From assembly GCA_918797485.1 (NCBI GenBank), contig CAKKNE010000002.1:1860001-1924000 (forward strand): a stretch of 64,000 nucleotides of DNA, given 5' to 3'. Both the position numbers and the translations under genes were made by a program. How positions within the stretch are numbered: position 1 is the first letter of the stretch; every line of letters starts with the position of its first letter. The notes below the pieces were generated by a model. That model was not told where the DNA came from. It saw only the letters and a program-made list of their open reading frames with translations, and did not search any database. This document shows positions 11,495 through 58,272 of this stretch, one piece after another. Source of the DNA: Pelagomonas calceolata. Its lineage: Eukaryota.

Positions 11495-11634
11495 TCGTGC
11501 GCGCACCCCGCTCTCGAGCGGAACCCACACCTATCCATAAGCTCCCTCACGCGCGCCTAACGACAAAAAATCTATCTAGCACATTACGCGCGGCGGGCGG
11601 GGCCCCTTTTGGGCGGGGAATTGGGGGAGTCGCC

Positions 11635-15139: not shown

Positions 15140-16099
15140 ATGACCCTCCCGCCCATCACGCCGCACACCACGACGATGCAGCCCGCCATGCCCACCTTCG
15201 CGACGCACTTCCGCGAGCGCGTCGGCGGCGTCCACCGCAAGCGCAACAAGCTCGCCCGACGGCACCTCGGCGCGGCGCGGCTCGGCATCGCGAAGGAGCA
15301 CGCGCGCGACGTGAAATTGCGGCTCCGCGCGGACCGCGACGAGGTGTTGAGGCGGCGCCGCGCGGAGCTGAAAGATATGGAGCGACGGCGGAAGAAGATT
15401 GACGTACAGCGGAAGGAGATGGAGGAACGCACAAGGCACATGCGGTTGATGCGGCACAAGGTGGAGACGGCGGACCTGACGACGCGGTGGCACGGTGTTG
15501 GAGGCGCCGAGGTGCCGCGGCGGGATTTGCGGACGATGAGGCGCGCGCGTCGAGTACCAGAACATAATGCGTTCTCGACGGTGCTGGAGCGCGACCGCAT
15601 GGCCGAGGCCGCTTTGGCCGAGAAGAGCGCCGGCGTGTGCATGAACCGGCGCCTCTTCTCCATTCAACAAAGTGAAGAAATCGACAGGAGGACCGAGACG
15701 GCCTACCGGGACCATAGGCATCTCGTGGACGAGAATCAAAGTAGAGCTCGAGTCCACGTCAAGGCGCCCTGTCCCCGGTTTGAACAGAAAAGGGTGCTGG
15801 ACACAAATGACGAGATCGCCGTCACGTTGGAAGCGGAGAAGTGGCTCGCGGTGCACAAGAACCGGGACAAAATAATCGCCAAGCTTGAGAGGCGGGACCT
15901 GAAGAGTAGGTGCAAGGCGCGCGACGACATGGATCGGTTCTGGGATTCGACGAGCGAGCGCCTCGCGAAGCTGCCGCCACCGGTCAAGATTATACCGAAG
16001 GGCAGCGCGTGGCAGCGCCTGCCCCAGAACCGCCTGCCGGAGTGGTCTATAGATACGACGGTCTTCCTGGGGGCGCAGCCGCCTGTTACGAGCCTCTAG
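15140..16099 (+). CDS. Hypothetical charged coiled-coil protein
   Basis: 319-aa ATG ORF with coding-like codon use and R/E/K-rich helices. Confidence 0.6.
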   Translation: MTLPPITPHTTTMQPAMPTFATHFRERVGGVHRKRNKLARRHLGAARLGIAKEHARDVKLRLRADRDEVLRRRRAELKDMERRRKKIDVQRKEMEERTRHMRLMRHKVETADLTTRWHGVGGAEVPRRDLRTMRRARRVPEHNAFSTVLERDRMAEAALAEKSAGVCMNRRLFSIQQSEEIDRRTETAYRDHRHLVDENQSRARVHVKAPCPRFEQKRVLDTNDEIAVTLEAEKWLAVHKNRDKIIAKLERRDLKSRCKARDDMDRFWDSTSERLAKLPPPVKIIPKGSAWQRLPQNRLPEWSIDTTVFLGAQPPVTSL

Positions 16100-16255
16100 C
16101 TTTCCTTGTCGGAGCCGCCCGCTCGCGCCCGCGCCCCGCGTTCGCCTGTGGCGCCGCGCCGCTCGTGCCGCTGCCGACGCCGACGACCCCCGACGCCGTC
16201 GAGGCGACGCATGTATGTGTGTTAAGAAGAAAGACGATAGAAAATTAGACAGTTC

Positions 16256-17230
16256 CTAGGGCACGACCGCGGCCTTTTTTTTCGGCTTCTCGACGCGACC
16301 GGCTCGCTCGAGCGACCAGTCCTCCAACATAAAGGCCGGCTTGTACTCCTCATTTGATAGGAGCGCCGGGTTTCGTTTCGTCGATGAGACTGATCCTAGT
16401 GAAGTGTAGCCCTCGTCGTACAAGGAACAATAAGGCAGGTCGAACGTCCTCAAGAAGCTCCAAACATCACCGTAACTCCAGTCCAAAATAGGGTTCACGC
16501 GCATGAACGCCGGCATCCACTCCGACGACGGCTCGAAGGGCTTCTGGTCGCCGCAGTTCGGGTCGCCCTGGCGCGTGCCGAGCACAAACGCTAATGCTCG
16601 GGGCTTCGCGTCGCTCACGAGTTTTTTGAGACCATCGACATAGCCGACGTCCGGCGCCACGGGCTCCACGGCTAACTCATCAGCTAGCGCCTCGCAGGTA
16701 TCTCTCACAAAGGTGCGGACTTCCCCGAAGTCGTCGGACGCGTCGAAGTAAATACATTTCGGTTTTTCTCTATTCGAACTTTTGACGGCGTGGGCGTGTC
16801 TAGCTGCTCGTAATAAGTGCAAGATCACACAGGCGTCTTTCCCTCCGTTGAAGGACGCGTAGACCTGTGTGGAAATCAAATTTACGGCGCGGTCGTTCTC
16901 CACGCCATCGATGCGACGCCTGCTCGATGGCGTGGCGATGTCGGTTCTCACCGCTTCGTCGCCGAGCAATGACTTGTTGAAGAATTATCGGGTGCACCCG
17001 ACACACTGGTTGATTTCCACACAGGCGTAGACGGCATCGGGCCCAAACACCCGCAACGCGTCCTCGAGGATTTTTATCGAGTTGTCGATCTTGTGCCTTA
17101 ATGGCTCGTCGCTGTAGTCGACAAATCTAGCGTGGAGTGCCGCTGCGTCGCCCACATCTTGTGCGCGCAGCCGAGGCGTGGACACCATCGCTCCGGCCAA
17201 ACTGCTCATGATCAAGATCGCTCTAATCAT
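16256..17230 (-). CDS. FLAD1: FAD synthetase (PAPS-reductase family); exons 17230-17033 and 16864-16256
   Basis: Spliced sequence gives DAVYASFNGGKD, GTRQGDP, MRVNPILDWSYGDVWSFL, YCSLYDEGYTSLG and ERAGR. Confidence 0.9.
16865..17032 (-). mobile_element. Introner (TIR/TSD intron-generating element), 168-nt intron
   Basis: Perfect TIRs CTGTGTGGAAATCAA (16865) and TTGATTTCCACACAG (ends 17024). Perfect 8-bp TSD GCGTAGAC at 16857-16864 and 17025-17032. GT donor comes from the TSD and AG from the TIR. Confidence 0.93.
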
Positions 17231-17506
17231 CGCGCCGGCCGCATGGCGCAGTGGTGTGAGCTGTGCCGTGTGCCTTGTCTACGTCTGCGCCACTACTGAG
17301 CCTGGCTGGGCAAGCTGGCCGGCTCATTTTGGTGGCCTAGTGCCTCTCTTTGCCTAGCCGCGCCCGGTACCCGTAGGCCCGGAGCTTTCGGGACCGCCCG
17401 AAACGCGACGGCTCCGTGGCGAAGCATCCATTTTTTTTGCCCACGCGGCTTCAACAGTCTGTCCTCAAGTTTGCAGCCGCAGCCAAATGCGAGAGCGCCA
17501 CGCGCA

Positions 17507-18598
17507 ATGCCGCCCAGACGGAAAAAACGGGCGGCGGCGAGCGGCATTGATGCCAGTACGCGCGGGGGACCGGGAAATTCATCAATATCGACGCCTGCAG
17601 CGCCCGAGCCAACTGCAATTCAAGCTCCCTCAGCAAGCGTGCACGCAACCGCACCGGTGCAGCCCGCAGCCGTAAACGCGACGGCGCCGTCGCCTGTCAG
17701 CGCGCCGGCGCCCGCGGCACCGGCCGCGCCGCCCGCAGCTGTAAATGCACAAGCGCCGCCCGCGGCGCCGGCCGAGCGGCGCATGACCGACCTCGCGGCG
17801 GCCGCCGCCGAAGCGCCGAAGCCGGACCCGCCGAAGCGCAAGCGACCGAAGAAGGAGGGCGGCGCGGCGCGCAAGGGCAAGTGGACCGTCGAGGAGTACG
17901 AGTACACGACGCGCATCATCGAGCTGTTTAACGGTGGGCTGCTGGAACTGCCCGAGGGCGTGACGCTGCGGGCGCATCTGGCGCGGAAGCTGAGCTGCGA
18001 CCCGATGCGCATCACGAAGAAGTTTAGCGGAGCGTCGTGTCTTGGTAATAAAGTTTTCCACAGCGCGGGCGCGCGGCCGCGCGGCGACCGGCCGCGGCCG
18101 TCGCCCCAGCAGCTCGAGGAGGCGGCGCGCGAGTTGCAAGTTCTGGAGGGCCGGTTCCAGGACGCGTGCGTGCGGTCGTCCGAGTCGAAGGACGTGCGCA
18201 TGATCGACCTCGAGGCGCGGTTCCAGAATTCCGATCGGGTCGTGTCGACGCCGGCCATCGACGCCTTCATCATGCAGAGCTGCCAGCCGACGTGGGACCC
18301 CGACCACGTGGCCTCGGCGCCGCCGCCTCTAGCGGAGCCGCGGCCCCTCGCCCCAGCGCCTAGTGCGCCGGCGGCGTCGTTCCCCGTGCCGCAGATCACG
18401 CAGCTCCCCGCGCCCGCTGCGGCCGGACCGGCGCCGGCCTCGCCCCAGACGTCGAACGACCAGATCGCTGCTGGTCTACTGTTGGGCTTCGGCCGGGCCT
18501 GCTCCCAAAATAGTGGTGACAGCTCGGAGCTCGTCGGCTTCGTCGAGGACGTCACCAGCCGCGCGGCCGGGCCGCCGCCGCCGCCGCCTGAATCCTGA
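17507..18598 (+). CDS. Putative transcription factor with stramenopile-type Myb-like RKGKWT...CDPMRITKKF domain
   Basis: RKGKWTVEEYEY...GLLELPEGVTLRAHLARKLSCDPMRITKKFSG, NLS-like PKRKRPKK and Pro/Ala-rich flanks. Confidence 0.75.
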   Translation: MPPRRKKRAAASGIDASTRGGPGNSSISTPAAPEPTAIQAPSASVHATAPVQPAAVNATAPSPVSAPAPAAPAAPPAAVNAQAPPAAPAERRMTDLAAAAAEAPKPDPPKRKRPKKEGGAARKGKWTVEEYEYTTRIIELFNGGLLELPEGVTLRAHLARKLSCDPMRITKKFSGASCLGNKVFHSAGARPRGDRPRPSPQQLEEAARELQVLEGRFQDACVRSSESKDVRMIDLEARFQNSDRVVSTPAIDAFIMQSCQPTWDPDHVASAPPPLAEPRPLAPAPSAPAASFPVPQITQLPAPAAAGPAPASPQTSNDQIAAGLLLGFGRACSQNSGDSSELVGFVEDVTSRAAGPPPPPPES

Positions 18599-18667
18599 TC
18601 TCTCTCCTTTCTTTGCTTTGCTGGAGCTGAAATCTAGTCGTTGTGTAATGTTCGCTTTATCGTGTGC

Positions 18668-19855
18668 CTAGAAATCCCCAAGCAAGCACGGATCCCCCAC
18701 GCCTCCGCGCGTCCACCACCCGAGCGCCTCGAGCTCGCTCCGGCAGTTCGTCGAGTGCCGGTCGCGCACGGCGCCGTGCGCGAGGCCGTCGGGGTACCGC
18801 AGCTGCATAGTCTTCGGCGAGCAACCCCCCTGCGCGCAGGGCTTGAACGCGGGCTCGCCCGTCCGCTTCCGCCGCTTCGCCTCGCGGAAGAGCCAGCGCC
18901 GCCACGGGTGCGCGTAGACGGTCGCACGGGAGTACGCCGCATAGGCAGCAAAGAAGAGGTCGTCGACGAAGAAGCAGCTCGGCAGGCGGCCGCCCGGGAG
19001 TAGCTCGCGGCCCCACCTGCGCGGGAGCGAATCGCGTCGATGGCGTAATAGCGACGAATACAAGACGCCGGCCGCCGACCGCTCGAGCTCGCCGAAAAGT
19101 GACAAAGGCGCCGCGAGCATGTCGCCGGCCTGGGCGACGCAGACGGAGTCCTTGATGGGCCGGCCGCGCGGATAAAAGTAGGAGTAGTAGGTCCACACGG
19201 TCTTTGTGGCGTCGTAGCCTACAGGTTTAGACGACGAGAAGCCGACGTGCAGCAGCGTCGCCAGCGCGAACGGCTCCCACTCGTGGTCGTCATCGGCCGC
19301 CACGACGATCGCCTTTTCACGGTCGTCGCCAGCCTTCGCGAGCAAGGCCGGGTCGCTCCGCAGCGCCTCGACCGCGCCCACGAGCTTCGTCGCCGGGCCG
19401 TAGTCGTGCGCGGGATTCGCGACGACGACGCACGGCGCGCACGGCCCCTTTGTTGATCGCGCCGCGGCGTCAAGCTGCGCGAGCCACGCCGGCGGCTCGA
19501 TGCGCTTGCCGTTCCAGTGACTGCGGCGGTTGTTGTAGACGTCGGGGATGCTCACGACGATCAGCGCCGGCTGCGACTGGTTCAATAGGCTTCGCACGGC
19601 CGGCTCGACAGCGGCCACGCGCGTCGGAGTAGTCGTCAGCGCCACGACCACCGGATTGCGGACGGGCGGCTTCGCGAGCAGCGCGCCGGCGGCCTTGAGC
19701 GCCGGGTCCTCCGGGTACTGCGACCGGTGCACGTGGGCGCCTTTGACTGTTTTGAGGTGCGGTCGGCTGTCCAGGATGGCTTGCATCCAAAGCGGGACGT
19801 CTTTGCTGGCGCACGTGGTGACTAGGAGGGCTGTCAGGGCGAGATTGCGTCGCAT
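18668..19855 (-). CDS. Secretory GT-A fold glycosyltransferase-like protein
   Basis: Signal peptide from ATG 19855. Motifs VVALTTTPTRV, DYGPATKL, ADDD (DxD) and VDDLFF. Confidence 0.7.
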   Translation of the reverse strand: MRRNLALTALLVTTCASKDVPLWMQAILDSRPHLKTVKGAHVHRSQYPEDPALKAAGALLAKPPVRNPVVVALTTTPTRVAAVEPAVRSLLNQSQPALIVVSIPDVYNNRRSHWNGKRIEPPAWLAQLDAAARSTKGPCAPCVVVANPAHDYGPATKLVGAVEALRSDPALLAKAGDDREKAIVVAADDDHEWEPFALATLLHVGFSSSKPVGYDATKTVWTYYSYFYPRGRPIKDSVCVAQAGDMLAAPLSLFGELERSAAGVLYSSLLRHRRDSLPRRWGRELLPGGRLPSCFFVDDLFFAAYAAYSRATVYAHPWRRWLFREAKRRKRTGEPAFKPCAQGGCSPKTMQLRYPDGLAHGAVRDRHSTNCRSELEALGWWTRGGVGDPCLLGDF

Positions 19856-20159
19856 TTTTAAGGTGCGAAGCTGTGCAAATGGACCAGAGGTACAGGCGGA
19901 CTGCGGAGCAAGCGGTTTGGTCGCGTGTATGCGGTGGTGCTTGTTTTGCAGCGGCGTGCCAGCGCCCGACAGGATTTTCACCATCGAAACTGAGGTTGAG
20001 TCGGGGGCAAGTGGCGGATGGGTGAATCAAAACATAACATGCGCCCAGAGGAAATACGCGCCCCAGAGGACAGGATGGAGGGGGAATAACCAGCGAGCGT
20101 GCCGAGCGACGCGGGTCGGAACAGCCAAAAGAGAAAGGGCAGCCTCGTATGAAAAGGGT

Positions 20160-20175
20160 GGTTTTTGTAAAAACC
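20160..20175 (-). terminator. Histone mRNA 3' stem-loop (H2B)
   Basis: On the minus strand, ACCC-GGTTTT-TACA-AAAACC-ACCC forms a 6-bp stem with a 4-nt loop, identical to the copy after H2A. Confidence 0.8.
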
Positions 20176-20282
20176 GGGTAGAATTGGGGTGTCCAGGCGG
20201 CCGTGAAACACGTGAATGTTTCAACAAGGCGCTTTTCGCTCGCGAAGGAGCCGCGCCGTTGACCGCGGACGGTGCGAGCTGT

Positions 20283-20633
20283 TTAGCTCGACGAGAACTT
20301 GGTGACGGCCTTGGTGCCCTCGGACACGGCGTGCTTGGAGAGCTCGCCCGGGAGCATGAGGCGGACGGACGTCTGGATCTCGCGGGACGAGAGCGTCGCC
20401 TTCTTGGAGAAGCGGCACAGCTTGGAGGCCTCGAGGGCGATGCGCTCGAAGATGTCGTTGATGAACGAGTTCATGATCGACATGCCCTTCTTGGAGATGC
20501 CCGTGTCGGGGTGCACCTGCTTGAGCACGCGGTAGATGTACGTCGAGTACGATTCCGTGCGCGACTTCTTCTTCTTGGCGCCGCCGGCCTTCTTGGGGGC
20601 TTTCGCCGACTTCTTGGAGGGGGTCTTGGCCAT
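20283..20633 (-). CDS. H2B: Histone H2B
   Basis: [38 protein letters not shown]...[16 protein letters not shown] at 20633. Confidence 0.98.
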
Positions 20634-20650
20634 GTTGCTGGTGGTTGTGT

Positions 20651-20888
20651 GTTTGCTTTTCTTCCGATGTGTTGGTGTGGAGGGCAGCCCGCTGGAGCGC
20701 ACACATTTCCGGGGCGCGGGCGAGCCGCTAACTTTTGGCGACGAATGAAATTGTGACCCTAGTATCTTTTTCCCCTCTAGGGTCGCAAAATGATTCGTCG
20801 CCAAAAATTAGCGGCGCGCTGACGCCCCGGAAATGTGTGCGCTCCAGCGGGCTGCCCTCCACTCCAACACATCGGAAAAAAAACAAAC
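20651..20888. promoter_or_regulatory. Palindromic bidirectional H2B/H2A promoter (inverted repeat, ~112-bp arms, 14-nt spacer)
   Basis: 20651-20762 is the near reverse complement of 20777-20888, e.g. GGAGGGCAGCCCGCTGGAGCGCACACATTTCCGGGGCG / CGCCCCGGAAATGTGTGCGCTCCAGCGGGCTGCCCTCC. Confidence 0.85.
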
Positions 20889-43914: not shown

Positions 43915-46900
43915 CTAAGGCGACTCGAAGTGCCGGCGGCGACGGCCTGACCCTGAGCCTGACCCTGAGCCTGATCCCGTGGCGCTGCGCGGCCGCCGCG
44001 GCCGGCCGTCGTCCCCCGCCTCACGGCGCTGGCGCCGTCGACGTCTGCGTCGTTCAGCGGGAGTCTCGTCGGCGAAGCCTTCGCCCTGGATCGGCGATTG
44101 GGCGTTTCCAAAGTACGCACCAAACAATCCGGCCGTGGCATCAGTCTCGAGGGGCGCGACGTCTCGTCGTCGGCGCCCGCTACGGCCTGTGAGCCTTCTC
44201 TTTTGCACCATGGTAGCATAGCCCAGTTGCACTGCTCTACAATCTTGAAACACTCCGTCCGGGAAGTGAGGTATGTCTGGTTTATCAAGTTCGGCGTGGG
44301 GATAGTCGGGTGAAATTTCGACGCCACAGCAATAGCAGAAGTCCGTGCGTTCGCGTGTACAAGGCATCACGTCCGTTGATTTGTGAGTCATATGATTGCA
44401 CGACTCGGGGTCATCCTTTTCTATCACTTTAAAACCTGTGTGGAATCAAAATTCGCGACGCGCTCGACTCCACGCCATCGCGACAGCTGCTCGACGGCGT
44501 GGAGGTGCCAGTTCCTCACCGCTCGACGGAGCCAGCACAGCCGTGAACCCGACGTACTGGTTGATTTCCACACAGCTTGAAACAACCGGGACAGCGCTGC
44601 GCGCCATGCTGTTCTCTCCACTCCTCCACCTCGACGTCGGCCCGCTCGCTACACTTGATATTCGGGTGCCACCTGCGTAGAATTCAACCGGTGAGTCAGG
44701 TTGCGTCGATGACGCAATGAAAATTGATTTCCGCCCAGGATCCACGGGCACTTGCAGCGGACGCACCATCTATAGGCGCAGTACGGGCACTGCACCATGG
44801 GGTCGCCGTCTCTAGGTAAGTTCACGAAGCTGCCGCACTTCAAACAATGTATACCTTCACCGAGCACGGATCTATCATAAAAATCGACGAACTTGCGGTA
44901 CTCCTTCCGCCCGAGCACGCGCCGCGCATGCAAATCAGATATATTTGTGGTGCAGCCGGCGTGATGCATCGGACAGCGAAGGGGAAACCTGTGTGGAAAT
45001 CAAATTTGGGCGCCCCGCTATCGACGCGACACATCCCGATGACATCCCGACGACTCCGTCTACTCGATGGCGTGGAACTGTTACGCCATAGACGCCACGT
45101 CGCCCATGTAATCGCGTCTGCTCGATGGCGTCGAGGTTCACGAAGTTCTCCCGCAATAACTCTCCGGATAAGCTAACTCAATGGGTGATTTCCACACAGG
45201 TAGAGACATCGAGATATCACCTAACGCAGCGTGGCAGTAGCTACGCATACAGCCGACGCAGACGTCGTGGTTGCACGACTGGAGATGTATAACAGCATTG
45301 TCCTCGGCGTAACAAATGCAACAGCTCCCCTTTTTCGTGAAGAGGCGGTTCTGGACCTCGTGGAAGAGCCGCCCGTAGTGCCTTGCGTGGTCCAGTTTGG
45401 GTGCAACGGCCGCGGCCTCGACCGCCCTTGGGGCCCACTGTTTTCTGCCGCGCGCGACGGCGATGCGCTGCCGCTTCCTCCTATCTTCCGCCGAGCCCCG
45501 GAAGACAATACCCCCGGAAACGCCCATGACCAGCGCGAGGAAGCCCCCAACCGCCAGCACGACGATGACCACCGTGGGCATCCTGTACTGTTTTTCTTTC
45601 ACAGGCTGGGACCCGTACAAGGGGTCGTCCCAGCAGAGCTCCCAGTACGGCCTACTTTCACGCGCGGGTCCCGCCGTCAAGCGCACATTTACAGTTGTGT
45701 TCTGGAGGTTCGTCCCGACGTTCACGTAGAGCCTCGTTAATACCCTGCCGCAGAAGATGCGTAAAGGTCGTAAAGTGCGTGTACAACACTCCGCGCCCGA
45801 GATTTTATCTCGACAGTCCTCGCACAGGAACACGAGCTGGCCCGCGGGCGTGTCGCCGCCGTAGACGGCGAAACTAATGCCCTGGCGCAGTTGGAGCGGC
45901 GCGTCGAAGGACACGTCCACATAAGTCACGGCTTCGGTCGCGGAGGCCGCCCAGCCGCAGTCGGGGTACGCCAATGTCGCGTTGCCCTGCCCCAGCGCCC
46001 AGGCCTTTGTCGTAGAAGACGTCGTGTACGTGAGCTCGTCGCTCGCGGAAGGGAGCGCGTACCGATGGCGTTCGAGCACGGCGGGCGCGTTGACCGTGCC
46101 GCAGTGGCGCTGGATATCCGTTTCCAGTGAAGCGCGGGGCGGTATCGCGGCGTGTCCGTCCACAAAGTCCACCTGCCGCTGCTGGACCACTTCCAACCGG
46201 TCGTCCATTCGCACCGAGAGAGACGTCTCCGGGGCGAGCTCGGCCCGCCACGCGGCCGTCAAACCTGTGTGGAAATCAACCAGTGAGTTAGGTCGTGAAC
46301 CTCTACACCAAGGAGCAGACGCAGTTACGGGGACAACGTCGCGTCGATGGCGTGGGGCGTGCGAAATTTGATTTCCACACATTGTCAAACGAGGCAGCGC
46401 CTTGCCCGCCGCAAGCCCGGGCCCCGCGATGTGCGCGTCCTCGGGCCCGTCTTCAGAAGCGGCGGCGAAGCCCTCGTCGGTCCCCGGCGTCTGGAGCAGG
46501 ACCTTGTCCGTTTCCGTGTTCGGCGCAGAGGCCACGAAGTAGTGCGCCAGGAAGCCCGTGCCCCAATCCAGGTCGTCGGAACCCTCTAACGTGGAATAGG
46601 CCACGCGGATCGCGCATCGGTCGGCATACGCCAATGACCCACAGGCCACGGATAAAGGTGGCGGCGGCGCGTCGCAGCCGCCTGCCCTACAGGAGAAGAG
46701 CACGGCGCCCGTGTCCGCTTGCGTCACGTTGAAGGACCCCGCATCACCTAAATCCAAGCGCGGGAACGCGACGACGACGCGCGTCGTCGCCGTGACCGGC
46801 GGCGCCAAGATCCACTCGCAGTCTTGCGAGGGCCGCGCGGCCGCGTCCGGCGCGGAGCCGTCGCTAAACAGGAACGACGACGCTCTTAACACAGAACGCT

Positions 46901-49397
46901 GCTGCGACGATGATGAGGCCCACCACTGTTGATCATCACCGGTCAGGGGCGCGAGGGGCACGAGGTGCGCGCCGCAGCCCTGCTGCGGCCGGTCCGAGAA
47001 GTAGGCCACGTCGAAGCCGCGGCCCGCTATTTCCGTAAAGGTCTGCAACCTCAAAATCATCTCGGGCCCGCTCGAGGCCAGCCACTTCGTGGAAGTACTA
47101 CCGCAGAACGTGTCCAGGATGGCGTCGTTGGACACGCTGCCGTCGTAGATTGTTAAAGATCCCTGGGCGCAGTCCGGTATGTCAATCGCGTTCGCCACGA
47201 GCAAGACGTTGGAACCGCCCCCTACGTCGACGTGCCAGTTGAGATCCAAACCCGACGCCAGCGTGTCCCCGACGTAGGGCGCGCGCACGGATGGTGCGGA
47301 GGCGGCGGCGAGCCGCATCTCGCCGTCGCCGACGCCTCTGCCTTCTGTGAAGGAGGCGTAGTAGCGTGCCTCGAACCCGAGGCCGTCGGGCTCCGCCTCC
47401 GTTTCCAACGTGACGTACAATGCATGTGATGAAGCGTGTAAGATGGGCGGGATCTCCTCGCAGCCCGCGCAGTCCCAGAGTAAGGTTGAGGTTGCATTTG
47501 CACCTCCATAGATCCGGAGCCGCCCGCCGCCCAGGTCGACGCGGTAGAACGCCAGGCTGATAGCTGAGACAATGGGTTCCGGTCGTACGAGCCACTCGCA
47601 CTGCAGCGAGGCGGCCATGGCGTCGGCCGGCGCCGAGCCGTCGCCGAAGACGAAGGAGGCCGCCGTGAGCACGCCGGGCTCGCGCACGTGGCCGCAGCGG
47701 TACTTTGGCGCGTCACTGTAGTACGCGAAGTCGACGGCGCCGCCCTCGGAAGTCGACTGGGAGAGTAATCGTAAAGTAATGCCATCAGAAGCAGGTGGCG
47801 CCGTGAAGGCGTCCGCGACCAACCAGGCCTGCAGGTCGGACGAGCAGTCCCACGTCTTGAGGAGTGGGGGCGACCCCGCCTCCTGATAAGCGAGGGCCCA
47901 CGTCGCCTCGTCGTCGCTCACCGCCCCGCCGTACGCCTCGACGACGTCGCCGCAATCGAGGGATAACGCGTTCCAGGCGATCGCCAAAAAGTCTATAGAA
48001 CCGCCAAACACTTTTGGATGTACGACCCACCTATAATCGAGACTCCCCTTCCAGTTATGCGGCGCTCGGATCGACGTCGCCGCGCCACCGACGAGCTCTA
48101 CTTTTTTAGAACCAGCACCGGCGTCCCAGTCCGTAGTTTCCGTCCAGTAGATGGCCTGCCAGCCCGTCCACTCGCTGGCCTCCTCGGTCACGGGGTCCGT
48201 GTAGTACGCGGAGCCGCTCCCGGACACGTATTCGACGTACAACGCGTCGCCCGACGCTTCTAAGGGAGGCGGCGCCGTGAACTGGCAGCCGGCGCAGGAC
48301 CAGAGGAGAGGAGCGTTTTCACCGTTCCCGTCGTAGACTTTCACACTACCTTCGTATTTTACGGACACGCGTTCGGCCACGAAGATTAAGGACGGCGTCC
48401 AGTCGCTGCGCGAGGGTGGCGGCCACGTTAGTGATTGTATTGAATGATCCAACAATGAAGGCGCGACCAGCCACTCGCACGCGTCGGGGCCGAGCATATT
48501 TCCTGTGGCGGAGGAACCATCTGTTAACAAGGCTGATGGTGCCGTAGCCAACGAAACCTCATCCAACGCCCCGTGCTCTCCACAACTACAATAACTCCCG
48601 ACGTGGCACGCGTCGGCGCCGGCCGCGACGTACCGCGCCCGAAATATGAAATCGGGTTCGTCCTCGGCACTGCCCGAAGCGCTACCCGGTGCTGAAAGTT
48701 GCACCATGACGTTGCCCCTTCGACCATAGACCCACTGCTCTGGAAAATCGGCGTGGGTCCACCGTGCCAGCAGGCCCTCGCCGTCGCTTACCGTGACGGT
48801 GTCGCCCTCGCGTAACGTGGCGGCCTCCACATAGACCGCCACGTCGCACTCCGTGCAATCTTTAGGATTGATCTTCCAATCATACAACAAGGGTCGGGGC
48901 GCTTTGCCGCTGGCCGTCTGCGGGGCTATCATGAGGCCTTGCGCCATCTTGAGCTCGACTTCGTAGGTCTCGCCGTCCGCCCGCTCGCCCATGTCGTCCG
49001 TGTGGGCCAGATACCTGATCTTGAAGCCGGAAGCGCCGCCTCTCGGGGCGCTAAAGGTGATAAGAGCAGCGGTCTTCGTTGTTAAGTAAAACGGCGGCGG
49101 CAGCACTTCCCCACAAGAAACACACCGCCACAGCTGCGCCTCGCTCACGCGCTCCTCGCCCTCGTACATGAAAATCTCGCAGCCGTCACATTGCAGTTCT
49201 TCGAAGACGAGCACGAGCGTCTGCATCGAACTGGAACTGCTCGGCTTGATGGCGTAGGTGCACTTGTCGCCCGGGTCGAGTCCTCCCTCGATATACGTCG
49301 CGAGGTTGAGGCGGCCCGTCAGTGCTGTGACCGTGGCGTCGTGGCAAATGGCCCAGGCGCCGGTGGCGAGCCAGAGGAGGGCCCAGAGGCGACGCAT
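43915..49397 (-). CDS. Signal peptide, ~7-8 CUB-like domains, TM and RBR (RING1-IBR-RING2) E3 ubiquitin ligase, ~1638 aa; exons 49397-46391, 46264-45208, 44988-44746, 44672-44584, 44435-43915
   Basis: Exons sum to 4917 nt (in frame). Repeated CxWxI...F..xDL...YDG...GF..xY CUB pattern. TM is VVIVVLAVGGFLALVMGVSGGIVF. RING1 is CCICY..CNHDVCVGC..RCPMHHAGC, IBR is CLKC..CPYCAYRWCVRCKCPWH...C and RING2 is RCPGC..IEK..SCNHM..FCYCCG. Confidence 0.87.
44436..44583 (-). mobile_element. Introner, 148-nt intron
   Basis: TIRs at 44436 and ending 44575. TSD TTTAAAAC/CTTGAAAC. Removal restores RCPG|CFKVIEK. Confidence 0.9.
44673..44745 (-). mobile_element. Degenerate, internally deleted Introner, 73-nt intron
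   Basis: Decayed TIRs CTGCGTAGAATTCAA / TTGATTTCCGCCCAG. Removal restores CKCP|WHPNIKC. Confidence 0.8.
44989..45207 (-). mobile_element. Introner, 219-nt intron
   Basis: TIRs at 44989 and ending 45199. Degenerate TSD GGGGAAAC/GTAGAGAC. Removal restores DISM|FPLRCP. Confidence 0.9.
46265..46390 (-). mobile_element. Introner, 126-nt in-frame stop-free intron
   Basis: TIRs at 46265 and ending 46382. TSD CGTCAAAC/TGTCAAAC. The ORF track reads through it. Confidence 0.88.
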
Positions 49398-50832: not shown

Positions 50833-52641
50833 ATGGTGTCCGGCCGCGCAAAGCGCCACGCAGCAATAGCAGGCATCGCCATCGCGACCGGCGTATTCAT
50901 GGAGCTCCTAAAAAACGCGCCGACGCCGCGCCGCGGCAACCCTATTCGCGAGCTCCTCTATGACGTGAAGCTGGAACGGCTGGAGAACGAGTCGCACTTG
51001 GCAACTACATTCCTAAGATCGCAGCCGGATGCGGAACTCGCGGCCTTCCTCGCCGAGAGCGCCGCCGCGACGAACTCGACGTTGGGCAGGATGAGGGCGC
51101 TCGCAAAACGAAGATTATTTTGGGGCCTGCAGCGTTGGTTGGGATTGAGCCGCACGGACGCCTCGGGCTTGCTAAGCATGGCGACGCTCTACGTCGGCTC
51201 GCACCAGCAGTTCAAAGCGCTGGTCAACGGCACGGCGGCGTCGCTCTTAGACGTCGGAAGCGGCACGGGCACGGAAACACAAAAGTTGGCAAATGTGCTG
51301 GAATCCGACGACGTCGCCTGCCTCGAGAGCTCCAAGGCCATGCGCGTCACATTAAGGGGGATGGGCTTTCGCGCCGAGGCGACGCCGGACGAACTGGGCG
51401 ACGAGGCCTTCGCCGCCGCTTCACTACTAAACGTGCTGGACCGCTGCGACGAGCCCGGAGCGTTGCTGAACTTGGTGGCGGATCGAGTGGCCGACGGCGG
51501 TCTGGTTCTGATCGCTTCTGTTTTACCTTATAGTCCGATGGTGCATGAAGGACGCTTCTTATCCCCGTACGGCAAGGCCCAATCACGTCGAGCGAAGCGC
51601 CCGTTGCAGGTGAAGCCCGCGCGGACCTTCGAGGCGGGCGCGATCAACTTCGTGAACAGCGTGCAAGCGGCGCGGCCGGGACTCCAACTAGAAAGCTGGA
51701 CGCGGCTGCCCTACGTCAGTTCGGGCGACACGGGCCGGACGCATTATGTGTTGGACCAGGCGGTCTTCGCGTTCCGCAATGCCATGAAAGACGCGCCGCC
51801 CGCCGCGTGTGCCAAGCGCGGTGATGATCAAATTTACAAGTGGCTCGGGACGCACTTTGAAGAAGGAGGCGATATGTTAGATGCGGGCACGGGCTTCGGG
51901 TCGCTCTGCTGGCTGCTGCGGCGGTCCTACGACTCGCTGACGGCCGTCACCGCGACCAATGAAGGCATGTACGGCGCCAAACCATTACGGGAGATGACGC
52001 GGAACCGGAACGTGAGCGTCGTCATCGGGAACTGGCGGGACGATGGTTTCTTGAGCGATCAGACATATGATGTGGTCGTCGCGGACTACCTGTTCGGCGC
52101 GACGGAGCGGTACTGGGCCTACGGCGCGGACGAGCTGCTTGGTAGGTTGTTAGATAGGGTGCGGCCGGGCGGCACGTTGCTCATCGTGGGCCTCGAGCCC
52201 TACGAGCTCGTGCTCGATAGGAACGAGAAGGACGACAGGCTGGTTCTCGAGGTCGAGGCCATCGGCGACGCCGCGGCGACGGCGGCGTTCGAGCCGAACT
52301 ACCGCGAGCTGCCCGAGCGCTGGATTCGTGAACGGATCGCGCGGACGACCCAGTTCAATGTTGTGGCCACGGAGCGGTTCCCGATGCGCCTCACGGCGCG
52401 GTCGCTGCAGCGGCAGCTCGTCTTCGCGCGCGACTGCCTCGTGAAGATCGAGGACGACGGCCTCCGGGCCGCCTTCGAGGCGCGGGTCCGGGCCCTCGAC
52501 AAGGAGCTTAGCGTGTGGGCGCGCAAGGGCAAGTCCCACCGCCGCGCGCGCAACTACGCGATCGTCGTGCGCCGCGCCGCGCAAGAAGGGGAGGCTGCTC
52601 CGAAAGAGCGCAAGCGGCGCTTCTTCGGGAAGAAGAACTAA
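50833..52641 (+). CDS. METTL9/DREV-like His-methyltransferase fused to a second class I SAM-methyltransferase domain
   Basis: SRTDASGLLSMATLYVGSHQQF, LLDVGSGTG, SLLNVLDRCDEP and WTRLPY fit METTL9. The second domain has MLDAGTG, GNW, YDVVVADYL and GLEPY. N-terminal hydrophobic anchor. Confidence 0.8.
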   Translation: MVSGRAKRHAAIAGIAIATGVFMELLKNAPTPRRGNPIRELLYDVKLERLENESHLATTFLRSQPDAELAAFLAESAAATNSTLGRMRALAKRRLFWGLQRWLGLSRTDASGLLSMATLYVGSHQQFKALVNGTAASLLDVGSGTGTETQKLANVLESDDVACLESSKAMRVTLRGMGFRAEATPDELGDEAFAAASLLNVLDRCDEPGALLNLVADRVADGGLVLIASVLPYSPMVHEGRFLSPYGKAQSRRAKRPLQVKPARTFEAGAINFVNSVQAARPGLQLESWTRLPYVSSGDTGRTHYVLDQAVFAFRNAMKDAPPAACAKRGDDQIYKWLGTHFEEGGDMLDAGTGFGSLCWLLRRSYDSLTAVTATNEGMYGAKPLREMTRNRNVSVVIGNWRDDGFLSDQTYDVVVADYLFGATERYWAYGADELLGRLLDRVRPGGTLLIVGLEPYELVLDRNEKDDRLVLEVEAIGDAAATAAFEPNYRELPERWIRERIARTTQFNVVATERFPMRLTARSLQRQLVFARDCLVKIEDDGLRAAFEARVRALDKELSVWARKGKSHRRARNYAIVVRRAAQEGEAAPKERKRRFFGKKN

Positions 52642-52652
52642 AACAACTGTGT

Positions 52653-53573
52653 TTAGACCGGCGGCCGCGCGTACTGGACGCCGGGAACCACGCCCGTCGT
52701 CGCGTAGAAGTCGTATTCTACGGAGTAGCCGTTCGACGCGAGGTATTCCTGGCGGGCCAGCTGGTCGAGGGCGCACGGCCCGCACCAAAGCATACAACAG
52801 CAGTCGTCGCAACCCGCGCACCAACAACAGACGTCGAGCGACTCGAGGCCGTACGCGCATCTCGGCGACGGGATACCCCATTTGCGCCGAATGCGCCGTC
52901 GGAGCGACCACCCGATGCAGTAGAGGCCGAGGAGAAAAATTCCCGCGAGGACCGCGCCAACGGCAAGGGCCGAGGAGGCACATGCCCGGAGGAACGCCGA
53001 TAACACCAGCAACACGACGCTCGCGACGAAAAGCAGACCACAACACGTCGTGATGCAACGGTGTCTCCCGCGGTGCCCCTGCTTCTCCATGAGTTGGCCG
53101 CACATATGGCACGGACAGCAAAAGCTCGCGAGGCCGGTACCAAGGTAGTCACTGTGATTAAATGAGTCGCAAACGTCCGTCTGGAACTTTCGCTCGTGTT
53201 GGTCCGGCGCCATCGCCGTCGCGCCCATCCGTAATTCGTCCGCGGTCGTCCGCCCCGACGGCGGCTCGACTGTCACAACCACCGCCTCGGCCGGCGGCGC
53301 GGTGGGCGCCAGCGGCTGCTTATATGACATTATCTCTGAACTGAGACTCCGGTCTCTCGAGCTCGGTCGCACGTTGCGGCCACTGCGCGAGTTCACCTAA
53401 TTGTTTCGTAGATCAGAACCACGCGTCGTAGCGCTTGGTCATGCACGGCTCACCGGCAGGACTGCAGGACTTGTCTGACTCCTCCGGGAGATCACGACGC
53501 GGACGGCGGCGATGATAAAAATCGCGCTAAAGAAGATGAGACCGTAGAACCGGGCGAGGATGTCGGCGCTCAT
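52653..53573 (-). CDS. PLAC8 / plant-cadmium-resistance (PCR)-like Cys-rich membrane protein; probable exons 53573-53454 and 53396-52653
   Basis: FCCPC, LRRRIRRKWGI and DCCCMLWCGPCALDQLAR. A 57-nt GTGAG..TAG intron adds an in-frame hydrophobic first exon. An alternative ATG lies at 53330. Confidence 0.82.
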
Positions 53574-53921
53574 TTGGCCTGTGTGTGCGAAGGTGGGACA
53601 ACGAGGGAGCTCGTCATCCCACCTGGACCCACCATGCGCGCGTGCGTCGACGGCGAGCGAAGGCGGTCTCTCCTTTGGGCTCGCCGGGAGACGGTGAATG
53701 TGCCGGGTCCCGCTTGTGGGTTGCCTGGGCCAGGTGGCTCTTTGTTTGCTTGTATTAGTTGTAAGTTGTTCAGGGGGTTTACAACTAATTTTTGAAGGTT
53801 GGTAGTCAGAGCCAGTACCAACTCAACCGCGGCCGACACTTCAGCTCCCCCCGACTCTCTTTTACGCATTTTTTACGCCGGTCAACGCACCTGCCTCGTA
53901 ATTGGGCAAAAGACAAGCATG

Positions 53922-53948
53922 GCTAGCGGCCTTGTAAGACACTAGCAA
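53922..53948 (-). promoter_or_regulatory. Recurrent upstream motif copy
   Basis: GCTAGCGGCCTTGTAAGACACTAGCAA upstream of the PLAC8 gene. Confidence 0.65.
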
Positions 53949-54038
53949 GTATCGCTCGCAGAAGGTGCGTATATGTGACTACACGGCGGAACCCCGACAG
54001 AATAAATAAAACTTAGTAGTAAGGCAACGGGGAGCAAG

Positions 54039-55517
54039 TCAGTGGTTGTGCCCTGCGTGCGGGTCCTCGACCTCCTTGTCCCCGGAGCAGTGCGAGTGGT
54101 CGAGGAGCACGAGGCCGATCGCGACGGCTCCGATGATGAAGAGGACGGTGTTGAGGAGCTTGAGGCGCCACGTCGGGTTCTTGTGCACGAACGTCGCCGC
54201 GCACTCCGTCGCGGCGACGTAGACGTAGACGCCGCCGCTGAAGGCCAGCAGCATGCCGCGGTCGCCGTTGCCCGGCTCCAACCACAAAAACCACCAGGCC
54301 CCAATAACGACGGAGGCGCCACTCACCACATTCACGGCGAGCGCTTGTACCGTCGTGAGGCCGCCGCGCGTCACGAGCATGAAGAAGTCGCTCACTTCTT
54401 GGGCGAGCTCGTGGGCCACCGTCGACGACGCGACGGTCCAGCCCTTGGACTGCTGGCAGTCCAGAAACGCGTTGGCGATGAAGATGCCGTCCACAAAATT
54501 GTGCAGAAAGTCCGAAAGAAAAATCGCGAAGCAGAACGACGCGTCGACCTTCCTCGCGGGCCGTTCCGTGTTCACGGCGTCCGCCTTGATGATATCTGAA
54601 CTCTCGGGGCCGCCGCCGTCCTCGATCTGGCAGCACGGCTCCTCGCAGTCGTCCGCCACGTACAAATGCGACGGGTCCGCCGCCGCCGACACCATACCCA
54701 ACAAATAGCCCGCGAGCACACAAGTCCCGAAGCGCCAGTTCCCCTGCACCTCCGTCTGGTAGGAAACCGCCAACAAATGGCTCGCCTCGATCAGCAGAAG
54801 GTAGAAGGCCGTCGCCAATAAACAACCCACGGCGAAGGCCGCCACGCCCATCGTGAAGGGCTCGTTCTCCTCGAGCTTGCCCACGCCAAAGGCAAACCTC
54901 AATATCGCCCCGACGACCGTGCAGGCCAGGACCAAAAACGATGCGAGCGTCGCGTTGCGCCACGCGCGCGCGTCCTTTTTGTTTTGGTTCTTGTCGGACA
55001 ATGGTGCGGCGCACTCCGCGAGGCGCCGCCGGTGGTCGTGGCCCGCGTGGGGATCGACGCCTTCACCTAAAGTGCAGACGGGCTCCACATCAACACCGGC
55101 GGCGTCCTTGAGGTAGTGCGTCGAGACCTCGATCTCATCGAGCCCGTGCTCGAAGAAGAACGCGAAGAAGCCCGTCGCCTCTGCTAATCGCCGGCCGTGG
55201 TCGTGGCCCGCGTGCGGGTCCGTCGCCGCGGGCGTCGTTATTGTGGTCGCGCCGGCGACGAACAAGGCGCAGGCCGTGACCTCGAGATCATGCGGATTTG
55301 ACGCATTATTGTTGCACTTCGAGAGGCCGCTGGCTAATGTTTTTGCCTCGTCGAGAGCGTAATAATCCAGTGCGTCGAGGCCGACGCCGACGGCGAGCAC
55401 CTTGACGTCTATGGCTGTCGTGAAGATGTAGTTGGTCTCGGCATTGAGCTCGAAGACCGCTACACTCTCATACGCCGCCGCGCAGCCTACCAGGAGGGCT
55501 GCCCGCAGCGCGGCCAT
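54039..55517 (-). CDS. ZIP (SLC39, LIV-1-like) zinc transporter with His-rich N-terminal ectodomain
   Basis: Signal peptide, TM4 DFLHNFVDG and TM5 HELAQEVSDF. DPHAGHDH occurs twice and the C-terminus is DPHAGHNH. Confidence 0.92.
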   Translation of the reverse strand: MAALRAALLVGCAAAYESVAVFELNAETNYIFTTAIDVKVLAVGVGLDALDYYALDEAKTLASGLSKCNNNASNPHDLEVTACALFVAGATTITTPAATDPHAGHDHGRRLAEATGFFAFFFEHGLDEIEVSTHYLKDAAGVDVEPVCTLGEGVDPHAGHDHRRRLAECAAPLSDKNQNKKDARAWRNATLASFLVLACTVVGAILRFAFGVGKLEENEPFTMGVAAFAVGCLLATAFYLLLIEASHLLAVSYQTEVQGNWRFGTCVLAGYLLGMVSAAADPSHLYVADDCEEPCCQIEDGGGPESSDIIKADAVNTERPARKVDASFCFAIFLSDFLHNFVDGIFIANAFLDCQQSKGWTVASSTVAHELAQEVSDFFMLVTRGGLTTVQALAVNVVSGASVVIGAWWFLWLEPGNGDRGMLLAFSGGVYVYVAATECAATFVHKNPTWRLKLLNTVLFIIGAVAIGLVLLDHSHCSGDKEVEDPHAGHNH

Positions 55518-56005
55518 CGCGGTCGCCGTCGCTGGCAGGTGTCGACAGGCTGGGTTGCGTGCCGCACAGGTGGGGCAGCGGCTCAGGGGATGCCTGCAGG
55601 TACGCGCTCTGTGACGTGCAGCGCTTCGCGCAAGCCGGGCAGCTTTTTGCCCAAGCTCTTTGTTGGGGGTGTGGGAGCAAATACCCGAACCTTATCCCCC
55701 GCGCCGCCCCGGAGGAATCCGTGGCAGCCCGACGCCCTGCGGGCGGCGGGCGGGCAGCCCTCAGCCCACCCCCTACTTGACGCCACAACAGAAACTCGCT
55801 GTGTTAATTAGCCACTTGCACGGGAAGTACGCGAATAAGGTAACGGCCGGCGCCGTGGAGGCATTATAGCATGCGAGCGTCGCCGCGTCGTGGCTGCCCC
55901 GCGGAGCGCTTTCGCTCCTGTTGCAACAGCGACGCGCAACCGAGGCTGCCTCCCACCTGCCAGAACGTCCGCGACGCGCGCCAACGCCGCCGTCCCGCAG
56001 GCATT

Positions 56006-56686
56006 ATGTCGCTCCGCAGCCTCCTTTTCCTCGCGATCGCGGCGCCGGCCGCGGCGGAGTACGAATGGTACGGGGTGGTGAAGCTGGCGCACTCGTCGGA
56101 GTACACAATGACGATAAAGACGCTGACCGAGACCATGAACCTCTACATCGCGGAGATCAACGAAGGCGCGGCGCTCGACGTGGCAGCGCTGGACACCATC
56201 GCCGACGGCGCCGAGTCCTACATGAAGACGTACGAGGCAAGAGACGGCACCATCGCTGACGGGGACGAAATCGATGTCGGGGAACAGACGGTCGTGACGC
56301 TCACGATGGGCACCGGCGCCACAACGACGTACGAGCTCCACGTTGGGGCGCACTCCCACCGCCGCCGCCTCTCGGGCGACGACGTCTACTTCGCCATCTT
56401 CGCCGGGCACGGCATCGACGAATGGGAGGACTCGTCGGCTCACTTCCTCAAGTGCGGCGCGGGGGCAGCGTGCGGGGACGTCGCGGCCGGCGCCGACATC
56501 GAGCTGGAGTGCGTCGGTGACGTCGACCACGCGGGCCACGACCACGGCCGCCGCCTCTCGGGCGACCACGAGGAGGCCGCCCCAACGTGCGCCAAGCCGT
56601 CGTCGAGCGACGGCGCGTCGACGCCCGCGGCGGCGGTGGCGCTGGCCCTCGCCGGCCTCGCCGGCGGCCTCGCCCTCTTCCTTTAG
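56006..56686 (+). CDS. Secreted, probably GPI-anchored His-rich protein homologous to the ZIP ectodomain (226 aa)
   Basis: Signal peptide, then YEWYGVV, HSHRRRL, FAGHGIDEWE..HFLK and HAGHDHGRRL. C-terminal SSSDGAS is followed by a hydrophobic tail ending the ORF. Confidence 0.82.
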   Translation: MSLRSLLFLAIAAPAAAEYEWYGVVKLAHSSEYTMTIKTLTETMNLYIAEINEGAALDVAALDTIADGAESYMKTYEARDGTIADGDEIDVGEQTVVTLTMGTGATTTYELHVGAHSHRRRLSGDDVYFAIFAGHGIDEWEDSSAHFLKCGAGAACGDVAAGADIELECVGDVDHAGHDHGRRLSGDHEEAAPTCAKPSSSDGASTPAAAVALALAGLAGGLALFL

Positions 56687-56853
56687 GCCTACCCACCGTT
56701 CGGCTAGGTCCCCCGAGCACAAGAGTAAGACTCGACGCTGTGGGTCTCGGGGCGGCGTTTTCTGTTCAAGTTACGGTTCTTGGGTCTGCTAATTAGCTAT
56801 TAGAGAGGTTAGAGAATGAAGAGAAGAAATGCGTTTCGGAGCGCGAGTACGGG

Positions 56854-58272
56854 TTAGCATTCGGGTTCGAGTTCCTGTTCCAATTCGGGCGCCCAGCTCT
56901 GCGCCGGAGGCGGCCGCTCGGCGGCGAGGACGGCCTCGGCGGGTACCTCTTCCTCCTCGGCCGCGAAGGCCCCCGCGCCTTCGTACCCATACGGGACTTC
57001 CACTCGCACATCCGCTTTGGGTATGGGTACCAGGGGCGGCGGCGCATCGGCCTTTGAGTCCGCGGCGTGTTTGTGCCGGGCCTTGTACGCGGGGCAGCCC
57101 GCACACGCGAAGCAGCACAGCGCGACGCAGCACAAGATAAAGACGAGGGCGCCGCACGCGAGGCCGGCGACGAGGCTGACGTTTAGTTTGCAGCACGCGG
57201 ACGAAGACGAGGCACAGCAGGTGTCTTTTTGGCAGCCTATCTCTTCCATTCCCAAGACTGTCCAGTCTTTCCACCGCCCAGTCTCGAGCCAAAAAACACC
57301 GCAGTGACCGTCGTGGAGATCTTCGGCGGCGCAAGTGCCGCACCCCTGGATGTTCCTGAGTGTGTCGAGCGCCGCGACGGTGTGCGGGCAGTACCCGGGG
57401 CCCATGACGTCGGCGCTCCATTGGTAGAACCCTGGGATGCCCAGCTGAGTATTCTTCTCCGTGCAGCCGTCCTTGTCGACGAAGGAGACGCAGTCCCAAC
57501 CGGTCTGGTCCCCCTCCAGGGCTGGGTCGAGCTGGAGCGAGTACCGCGCGATGAAATCTTCCGGGCAGCAGCCGCCCGCCTGTACCTCCGCCAGGGTCGT
57601 GCCGCAGCCGTACTCGTTGTCGAATTTACTTCCGTAGACGCTGACGCAGCACTCGCCCTCGGCCGCCAAGTCCACGATGCCATCGCCGTCGTTATCCTTT
57701 GTGGCGTCGACGGCGCACTCGTTGTCGCCCGAGAGGCGGCGGCCGTGGTCGTGGCCCGAGTGGTCGACGTCACCGACGCACTCCAGCTCGATGTCGGCGC
57801 CGGGGAAGACGTCCCCGCACGCCGACGCGCCGCACTTGAGGAAGTGGACCGACGAGTCCTCCCACTCGTCGATGCCGTGCCCGGCGAAGATGGCGACGTA
57901 GACGTCGTCGCCCGAGAGGCGGCGGCGGTGGGCGTGCGCCCCGATGTGGAGCTCGTACGTCGACGTGGCGCCGGTGCCCATCGTGAGCTCCACGCATTTC
58001 TGGGTCGTGTCGATCTCGATTTCGGTGCCGTGCGCGGCCGTCGCTCCGTAACAGTACGTCTGCATGTAGGACTCGGCGCCGTCGACGATGGTGTCCAGCG
58101 CTGCCGCGTCGGGCGTCGCGCCGATTTCGGCGATGTAGAACCTCATGGTCTCGGTCAGCGTCCTTATCGTGAGGTCGTACTCCGACGAGTGCGCCAGCTT
58201 CACCACCCCGTACCACTCGTAGGCCGCGGCCGGCGCCGCGACCGCGAGGAGAAGGAGGCTGCGGAGTGCCAT
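56854..58272 (-). CDS. Type I membrane His-rich protein (472 aa): same ectodomain plus Cys-rich domain, TM and acidic tail
   Basis: The N-terminal ~180 aa are nearly identical to the 56006 gene. Cys-rich middle and TM LVAGLACGALVFILCCVALCCF. ATG at 58272. Confidence 0.82.
   Translation of the reverse strand: MALRSLLLLAVAAPAAAYEWYGVVKLAHSSEYDLTIRTLTETMRFYIAEIGATPDAAALDTIVDGAESYMQTYCYGATAAHGTEIEIDTTQKCVELTMGTGATSTYELHIGAHAHRRRLSGDDVYVAIFAGHGIDEWEDSSVHFLKCGASACGDVFPGADIELECVGDVDHSGHDHGRRLSGDNECAVDATKDNDGDGIVDLAAEGECCVSVYGSKFDNEYGCGTTLAEVQAGGCCPEDFIARYSLQLDPALEGDQTGWDCVSFVDKDGCTEKNTQLGIPGFYQWSADVMGPGYCPHTVAALDTLRNIQGCGTCAAEDLHDGHCGVFWLETGRWKDWTVLGMEEIGCQKDTCCASSSSACCKLNVSLVAGLACGALVFILCCVALCCFACAGCPAYKARHKHAADSKADAPPPLVPIPKADVRVEVPYGYEGAGAFAAEEEEVPAEAVLAAERPPPAQSWAPELEQELEPEC

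Follow-up and report, generated by a model that had tools for sequence, protein, structure and literature searches.

At positions 50833-58272 of a 64-kb window of the Pelagomonas calceolata genome (the window being the whole stretch of DNA that was analysed), five adjacent and intact open reading frames (ORFs) encode a METTL9/DREV fusion methyltransferase, a PLAC8-like membrane protein, a ZIP (SLC39) transporter and two proteins that we call S1 and S2 (Table 1). The ZIP carries an unnamed outer domain, and the same domain is present in S1, freed from the transporter and very abundantly transcribed. A ZIP with such a freed ectodomain is real at this locus and appears to be undescribed. We favour, with a probability of roughly 0.6, the reading that S1 is a surface collector of zinc (or of cobalt or nickel) that feeds its parent ZIP, and we regard METTL9 and PLAC8 as neighbours that most probably do not belong to this core.

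According to this reading, the outer domain of the ZIP would have been duplicated into the free-standing S1 and S2; S1, predicted to be held on the cell surface by a glycosylphosphatidylinositol (GPI) anchor, would bind scarce zinc (or cobalt or nickel) through a core of His and Glu residues and through His loops, and would hand the metal over to the ZIP, thereby raising its supply. S1 may in addition be cut at its RRL sites, a cleavage motif known from diatom wall proteins. A preliminary description of this DNA had confirmably placed five adjacent genes here and had assigned to them a capture protein and an importer, a part of its proposal that is now supported, on stronger grounds than it gave, by the shared domain, by the head-to-head promoter and by the occurrence of the domain in zinc machines of the ZnuA and COG0523 kinds.

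Homology of S1 and S2 to the ZIP ectodomain

The transporter matches the Pfam ZIP family (PF02535; E 1e-16, 61.3 bits against a cut-off of 35.1) and, as read from its sequence, has the metal ligands of transmembrane segments 4 and 5 (His-Asn..Asp and His-Glu...Glu); we take it to be LIV-1-like. Its N terminus is signal-like and its C terminus is tipped with His; it has one copy of the unnamed ectodomain (amino acids ~14-170, nucleotides ~55008-55478) and two His-RRL loops. No usable match was found among PDB sequences, and the named proteins among its 52 homologs are from a pelagophyte (42%) and from haptophytes. One protein cluster joins the window ZIP to PAPS-transporter-like proteins to which it is unrelated, probably through an artefact of the clustering.

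S1 consists of a signal peptide, the freed ectodomain, His-RRL loops and a GPI-like hydrophobic tail that forms the very end of the protein in the hydropathy profile. S2 combines an S1-type domain with a Cys/Asp-rich stalk, one membrane helix and an acidic tail. The two genes are an inverted duplicate pair whose arms are 85-93% complementary, and their domains share 79% amino acid identity. Neither protein has a Pfam family (E 0.1) or an NCBIfam family, S1 has no Atlas match, and the domain fell into three unnamed Atlas clusters, all below 0.9.

Both proteins are homologous to the ZIP ectodomain over ~140 amino acids. A profile of 38 S sequences aligned with amino acids 4-173 of the ZIP at an hhalign probability of 98.9 (E 2.7e-17), and a hidden Markov model (HMM) made from 43 ectodomain copies of other ZIPs, built without any S or window-type ZIP sequence, matched S1 (4e-8), S2 and 73 of the 78 S homologs. 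Following the last core motif, a Cys is found in 73/73 S sequences and 6/6 window-type ZIPs, in 0/37 other ZIPs and in 4/142 further carriers of the domain; a Pro of the family is lost in S and in the window-type ZIPs and kept in 31/37 other ZIPs and 135/142 further carriers. S and the window-type ZIPs form one clade (97/88) in a 35-row tree that includes loop and tail and leaves out four rows of a 39-row set, three of them long branches; a quick tree of all 39 rows gave the grouping a value of 82. Judged from these sequence comparisons, S likely originated by duplication from the neighbouring ZIP lineage.

Table 1. Features of the five-gene region in the window
Feature	Position	Strand	Size and support
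METTL9/DREV fusion methyltransferase	50833..52641	+	602 aa; Pfam, PDB, RNA
RNA antisense to the complete PLAC8 ORF	52642..53408	+	depth 159-241
PLAC8/PCR-like membrane protein, CCPC motif	52653..53330	-	225 aa; sub-threshold Pfam, helices
ZIP (SLC39) transporter with unnamed ectodomain	54039..55517	-	492 aa; PF02535
Divergent ZIP/S1 promoter	55647..55802	.	155 bp; transcript 5' ends
Intron in the S1 5' untranslated region, GT-AG	55840..56000	+	161 nt; spliced reads
S1, freed ZIP ectodomain with GPI-like tail	56006..56686	+	226 aa; homology
S2, inverted duplicate of the S1 domain	56854..58272	-	472 aa; homology, low expression

Distribution and predicted fold of the domain

The domain itself has no family name: 18 of 18 members had no Pfam match under E 0.01, and neither NCBIfam nor the PDB sequences gave a match. 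A profile search (E 0.001) found it in 761 sequence clusters. Among the best 150 there were 142 new representatives, of which 39 are ZIPs, 14 ZnuA, one HMBD and one Hint, so that ZIP, ZnuA or HMBD accounts for 54 of the 55 carriers with a Pfam label. GPI-like tails, by a strict rule, occur in eight of the 87 carriers without a family. In 22 of these 87 the ectodomain is joined to another unnamed domain, which is Cys-rich and repeated and has a His-His-Asp-x-Cys motif; its carriers, which include P0233, P0265, P0286, P0315, P0352, P0356 and P0359 and often have GPI-like tails, occur in the diatom Proboscia and in the green alga Prasinoderma.

In a scan of GTDB, the HMM confirmed 18 of the 167 matches to the pattern, and at all 18 loci the domain lies inside proteins of two kinds: ZnuA-type proteins (five, three of them euryarchaeal and two from Kiritimatiellia) and COG0523 GTPases (13, from Verrucomicrobia; the range L085-L098 also includes one from Kiritimatiellia), in which it is inserted between the GTPase and CobW_C halves. 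These carriers often stand beside genes for ATP-binding cassette permeases of the znuBC type. The eukaryote-built HMM matched the 18 carriers at 6e-42 to 2e-5 and no reversed decoys, and a profile made from S sequences alone matched the three archaeal carriers weakly and no others. The best NCBIfam matches of the carriers are zinc families similar to AztC and ZigA (below the cut-offs), and one locus, L086, has the layout Fur-COG0523-ZnuA that zinc starvation loci typically show. This company of zinc proteins, together with the conserved His/Glu core, suggests that the domain binds metal.

Further arrangements of the domain were observed. In three marine euryarchaeal ZnuA-type lipoproteins (L081-L083) it lies within the His-rich loop, and one of these copies (P0231) formed a group (96/94) with a GPI-like protein of a diatom, which hints at a transfer of the domain between archaea and algae. 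An algal ZIP with the domain (L027, 2-700, minus strand) stands head-to-head with the gene of a COG0523 GTPase (1189-3004, plus strand), ZIP genes of this kind form tail-to-tail pairs in L003, L004, L006 and L009, and several ZIPs of the metagenome loci have two or three tandem ectodomains. One published P. calceolata ZIP carries the domain in tandem; for it, the available part of the source, with the meaning of its columns inferred, gives 22.7 with iron against 10.2 without iron in high light and 7.2 against 4.0 in low light (PMC13284251); higher values with iron argue against iron uptake for that paralog.

A typical member of the family, taken from L015 and not S1, was modelled as a beta-sandwich with one helix at a mean predicted local distance difference test score (pLDDT) of 95.8; the model of S1 itself, for which the family alignment is shallow, reached 35. 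Foldseek against the PDB returned no match at E 0.001 (best 0.04) and VIA-align no Z score of at least 5 (best 4.8, assorted beta-sandwiches), neither of which implies a novel fold. A literature search that had subscription journals outside its scope found no description of the domain or of the locus, and the domain is not described in the available parts of PMC4855317, PMC13368412, PMC11685980 and bioRxiv 10.1101/2021.10.25.465678.

Expression and conservation of the ZIP-S pair

Transcription was read from four stranded poly(A) RNA runs, 6-12% of each of which was examined. S1 reached a depth of 11,600-20,800 in its top bin; the ZIP was at 26-108, S2 at 14-49 and the methyltransferase at 24-185. 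The 9-kb locus took up 0.35-0.54% of the reads. Hidden paralogs as the source of the S1 reads were ruled out, given that 95-96% of the reads fell in the 99+ class and that the DNA contigs hold a single S1 and a single S2, at the depth of their flanks. Transcript 5' ends at 55645-55649 (ZIP) and 55796-55811 (S1) place the two genes head-to-head, ~155 bp apart, and splicing in the 5' untranslated region (UTR) of S1 was supported by 293-850 reads per run. A full-length S1 protein has been recorded from a transcriptome source; the examined part of a published proteome file did not contain the genes of the locus.

The same pairing was seen in relatives, for which we used 80 metagenome ZIP loci, three of them close (91-100% amino acid identity over the available part). 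The ZIP versions of the close loci are about equally diverged from the window (dS 0.37-0.38). In L001 the ZIP, the promoter and an S gene are collinear and head-to-head, the start-to-start region being 89% and the ZIP 94% identical, and a short-chain dehydrogenase gene lies downstream of the ZIP. One relative at a greater distance has S and ZIP proteins that twice share longest-contig sizes, which suggests that they are linked there too. The stable unit is the ZIP with S. By simple pairwise counts, made at high GC content of third codon positions, the ratio of nonsynonymous to synonymous substitution rates (dN/dS) of the ZIP is 0.05-0.08 in the membrane part and 0.23-0.27 in the ectodomain.

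Points against the collector reading and its rivals

Several observations weigh against S1 as a metal collector that serves the ZIP. As to the protein, its GPI anchorage at the cell surface is a prediction from hydropathy only, and S1 lacks the family Pro, an Asp that 79% of the eukaryotic copies have, and the central Cys pair; S moreover evolves in a near-neutral manner, with dN/dS of 0.81 between S1 and the S of L001 and 0.86 between S1 and S2. As to expression, the S1/ZIP depth ratio of 157-200 is, at near 200, unlike simple co-regulation, the four RNA runs carry one sample code, and the depth of S1 falls below 80 after 56570, upstream of the anchor codons, a drop that we tentatively attribute to a stretch of 88% GC. 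As to descent, support for the S/ZIP clade is 87/79 when the His-RRL loop and the tail are removed, and the grouping is unresolved in a 75-row quick tree; both are long branches. Finally, the 87 of 142 carriers that have no Pfam family, many of them fragments, are uninformative, the pattern used for the GTDB scan pre-selected an F/H/P/E core, and a NikR-like regulator gene (NCBIfam, below the cut-off) lies beside the archaeal carriers.

The fast evolution of S makes one rival a serious one, namely that S1, though derived from the ZIP ectodomain, is mainly an abundant and fast-changing surface coat or decoy shaped by viruses or grazers, whose metal binding is now minor. The dN/dS values of S, found beside a promoter and a ZIP as well conserved as those of L001, are what it would predict, as are the excess of S1 over ZIP transcripts, the loss of the conserved Pro, Asp and Cys, the existence of two deep S sequence types (~47% identity) beside near-identical promoters, and the mosaic look of four of the 78 S sequences, which may be assembly chimeras. 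We nevertheless consider a coat unlikely, because the core His, His, Glu, Asp and Glu do not vary among the 38 S sequences of the alignment, the His-RRL loops are preserved in 72/73, the head-to-head arrangement with the ZIP is retained in L001, and no viral copy of the domain was confirmed among the candidate contigs (0/38 and 0/34). That the ZIP-S pair, instead of taking up zinc, takes up nickel or cobalt, or buffers excess copper or cadmium at the surface, is improbable: the NikR-like gene makes nickel possible, Co, Ni and Mn are among the metals of COG0523 and of cluster A-I binding proteins, and S1 was very high in all four culture runs, but the zinc families among the NCBIfam matches and the zinc-starvation-type layout of L086 speak against it.

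A broader form of the collector reading is more doubtful than the reading itself, although we think it worth stating. The domain, taken as a zinc binder common to algal ZIPs, to the ZnuA proteins of bacteria and archaea and to COG0523 chaperones, may have been freed repeatedly as GPI-anchored collectors in marine algae, and S1, at ~0.5% of mRNA, might be cut at His-RRL and shed, serving both high-affinity uptake and, in part, the pool of dissolved zinc ligands in the ocean; it would then be an algal zincophore that came about in the manner of the prion protein. Cleavage at the RRL sites of S1 is putative, and the literature search found no support for it.

The METTL9 fusion, the PLAC8 gene and the proposed module

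The METTL9 domain of the fusion protein is, on its sequence, genuine. It matches PF05219 at amino acids 55-314 (E 2e-28, 99.5 bits against a cut-off of 26), METTL9/DREV chains were the matches in four of four cases in a search of PDB sequences (E 1e-16), and the identification made in the preliminary description, which had named an HMM search as the way to refute it, was thus upheld. Motifs I, post-I and post-II and the His-binding residues are preserved. Among the ten active-site residues named in a METTL9 review (PMC13027442, available part), seven are kept: E174, N210, D213, Y295, D300, Y306 and L308 of the SAM and His pockets of METTL9 correspond to E165, N200, D203, Y294, D299, Y305 and L307; three differ, N118, R123 and M126 being replaced by S111, M116 and L119. 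Unlike the METTL9/DREV histidine N1-methyltransferases, the window protein is fused to a second class I S-adenosylmethionine methyltransferase domain (amino acids ~342-453), a fusion that the available part of the review does not mention. This second domain (51850-52200) weakly resembles DSYB (E 0.001) and CpaM (26 bits against 180). The gene gives a single plus-strand transcript with no listed intron.

The PLAC8-like protein has a CCPC motif at amino acids 71-74 and two hydrophobic helices and is Cys-rich, in all of which it resembles the plant PCR/CNR proteins. Unlike these, it stays under the cut-offs of Pfam (PF04749, 31 bits against 34.4, E 5e-7; an insertion splits the domain) and NCBIfam (TIGR01571, 26.5 bits against 35.05, E 9e-6) and gives barely any sense RNA. 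PLAC8 proteins have several roles, metal efflux being just one. The antisense molecules over the gene, which terminate at 53388-53408, possibly represent a long 3' UTR (770 nt) of the METTL9 fusion gene, or else a separate RNA, and such a 3' UTR is possibly silencing the neighbouring PLAC8. The ortholog in L002 contains a 95-nt GT-AG intron (2300-2394), absent from the window gene, and this indicates that PLAC8 is a real gene.

The preliminary description had joined all five genes into a module in which capture proteins and an importer would work with a PLAC8 exporter and with METTL9 as a tuner of HxH affinity. Its observation that the ZIP, S1 and S2 carry HxH motifs is correct (four, two and three; of the 24 other long ORFs in the window, four have a single motif), and the motifs exceed the local background. 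It did not mention that S1 and S2 are an inverted duplicate pair, that both copy the ZIP ectodomain, or that nearly all RNA over PLAC8 comes from the other strand. The label His-rich applies modestly, with 3.2-4.4% His, placed in short loops, and the proposed metal or histidine chemistry is conjectural for PLAC8 and the second methyltransferase domain. The module has in its favour the genuine METTL9 domain, the fact that a lumenal HxH of SLC39A7 is a substrate of human METTL9 (PMC13027442), and a METTL9 gene two genes away from a ZIP, for which a rough, post hoc estimate puts chance below 1%. Human METTL9 favours an x that is small and uncharged, and P, V, I or E next to the motif is poorly tolerated (PMC12269839, available part); by this rule acceptable sites exist on S1, on S2 and on the ZIP tail, but x is small and uncharged in just four of the nine motifs, and acceptable sites occur in 37/78 S homologs, in 0/17 of those of type B and in 10/14 ZnuA-type carriers. 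With such sites missing from every type-B sequence and present in most ZnuA-type carriers, METTL9 is not needed to explain them. The HxH motifs look like ordinary metal-binding loops and are by themselves no pointer to METTL9, whose putative activity could reach some of them as it could any other substrate.

Linkage is mixed, and expression does not favour the module. The order METTL9 (3' end)-PLAC8-ZIP is retained in L002 at dS ~0.38, in which the ZIP has an in-frame stop at 856-858; the equally diverged L001 and L007, which represent one lineage, differ downstream of the ZIP, where other genes lie (L007 equals L001 over 665 nt and has no PLAC8 in the 621 bases downstream), giving one linkage in three close loci. 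By tblastn the 80 ZIP loci, mostly short contigs, gave no METTL9-domain match and one PLAC8 match. In the four RNA runs the five genes are not expressed jointly: PLAC8 is near-silent beneath its antisense RNA (sense depth 0-6.6) and levels extend across four orders of magnitude; between runs, methyltransferase depth varies 2.5-fold and ZIP depth 1.3-fold. In hydropathy, the N terminus of the METTL9 fusion falls below the threshold set for membrane anchors. A four-function module is therefore improbable in our view and at best partly real.

Other features of the window

Genes for a PAP-fibrillin, a CUB protein, a kinase, a JmjC protein and a Rab (by Pfam) flank the locus. On the minus strand, 45138-49397 encodes a protein of 1419 amino acids with a signal peptide, repeated CUB domains, a membrane helix and a RING-like stretch at the C terminus. 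An intergenic motif of ~25 bp with the core TAAGACACTAGC occurs nine times in the window against 0.04 expected (3202, 23082, 36997, 40769, 49614, 50623, 53935, 58450 and 61555); several copies lie in divergent promoters and none in the ZIP-S1 promoter. The motif may be a promoter element or the remnant of a mobile element, and a role as regulator of the cluster was ruled out by the spread of its nine matches over the window. An ORF of 44 codons (53439-53573) was dropped, as it has no counterpart in L002 and no sense reads.

Comparison with known systems

The closest parallels to the proposed ZIP-S1 pair come from sources that were available to us in part. In fungi, the gene of an extracellular zinc gatherer lies beside a ZIP gene (PRA1-ZRT1, aspf2-zrfC), a synteny found in many species (PMC5751234). 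As at such a zincophore locus, S1 adjoins the ZIP, in L001 as well and, by inference, in one more relative. The fungal genes are known to be induced together by low zinc; the S1-ZIP pair is likened to them from its gene layout. Unlike the secreted Pra1, S1 is a copy of the ectodomain of the ZIP itself with a predicted lipid anchor, and S1 and S2 lack the Pfam family that marks off Pra1/Aspf2. Pra1 is presumably unrelated in sequence to its ZIP. In diatoms, the membrane-tethered ZCRP-B has been proposed to concentrate Zn and Co near ZIPs (PMC9010474). ZCRP-B resembles NikA and has a membrane helix at its N terminus; S1 and S2 have no Pfam, NCBIfam or PDB sequence match, and another fold is predicted for them.

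The origin of S1 is paralleled by that of the prion protein, which descends from the ectodomain of ZIP5/6/10 and for which a change from a transmembrane to a GPI anchor has been discussed (PMC2745754). In both cases a ZIP ectodomain was released as a gene of its own, but the domain is a different one, and the event would be independent and no case of homology. Neither Pfam nor PDB sequences indicated a PrP-like sequence in S1 or S2, and no prion chain was among the matches listed in the fold searches, which does not exclude a PrP-like fold. The prion fold is helical, and the model obtained here is a beta-sandwich.

The uptake of picomolar zinc by small ocean algae is only partly understood, and S1 would make an easy field marker if it proves responsive to zinc. 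If our reading is true, a ZIP ectodomain would here have turned into a lipid-anchored protein for a second time and independently, which would give a point of comparison for the origin of the prion protein.

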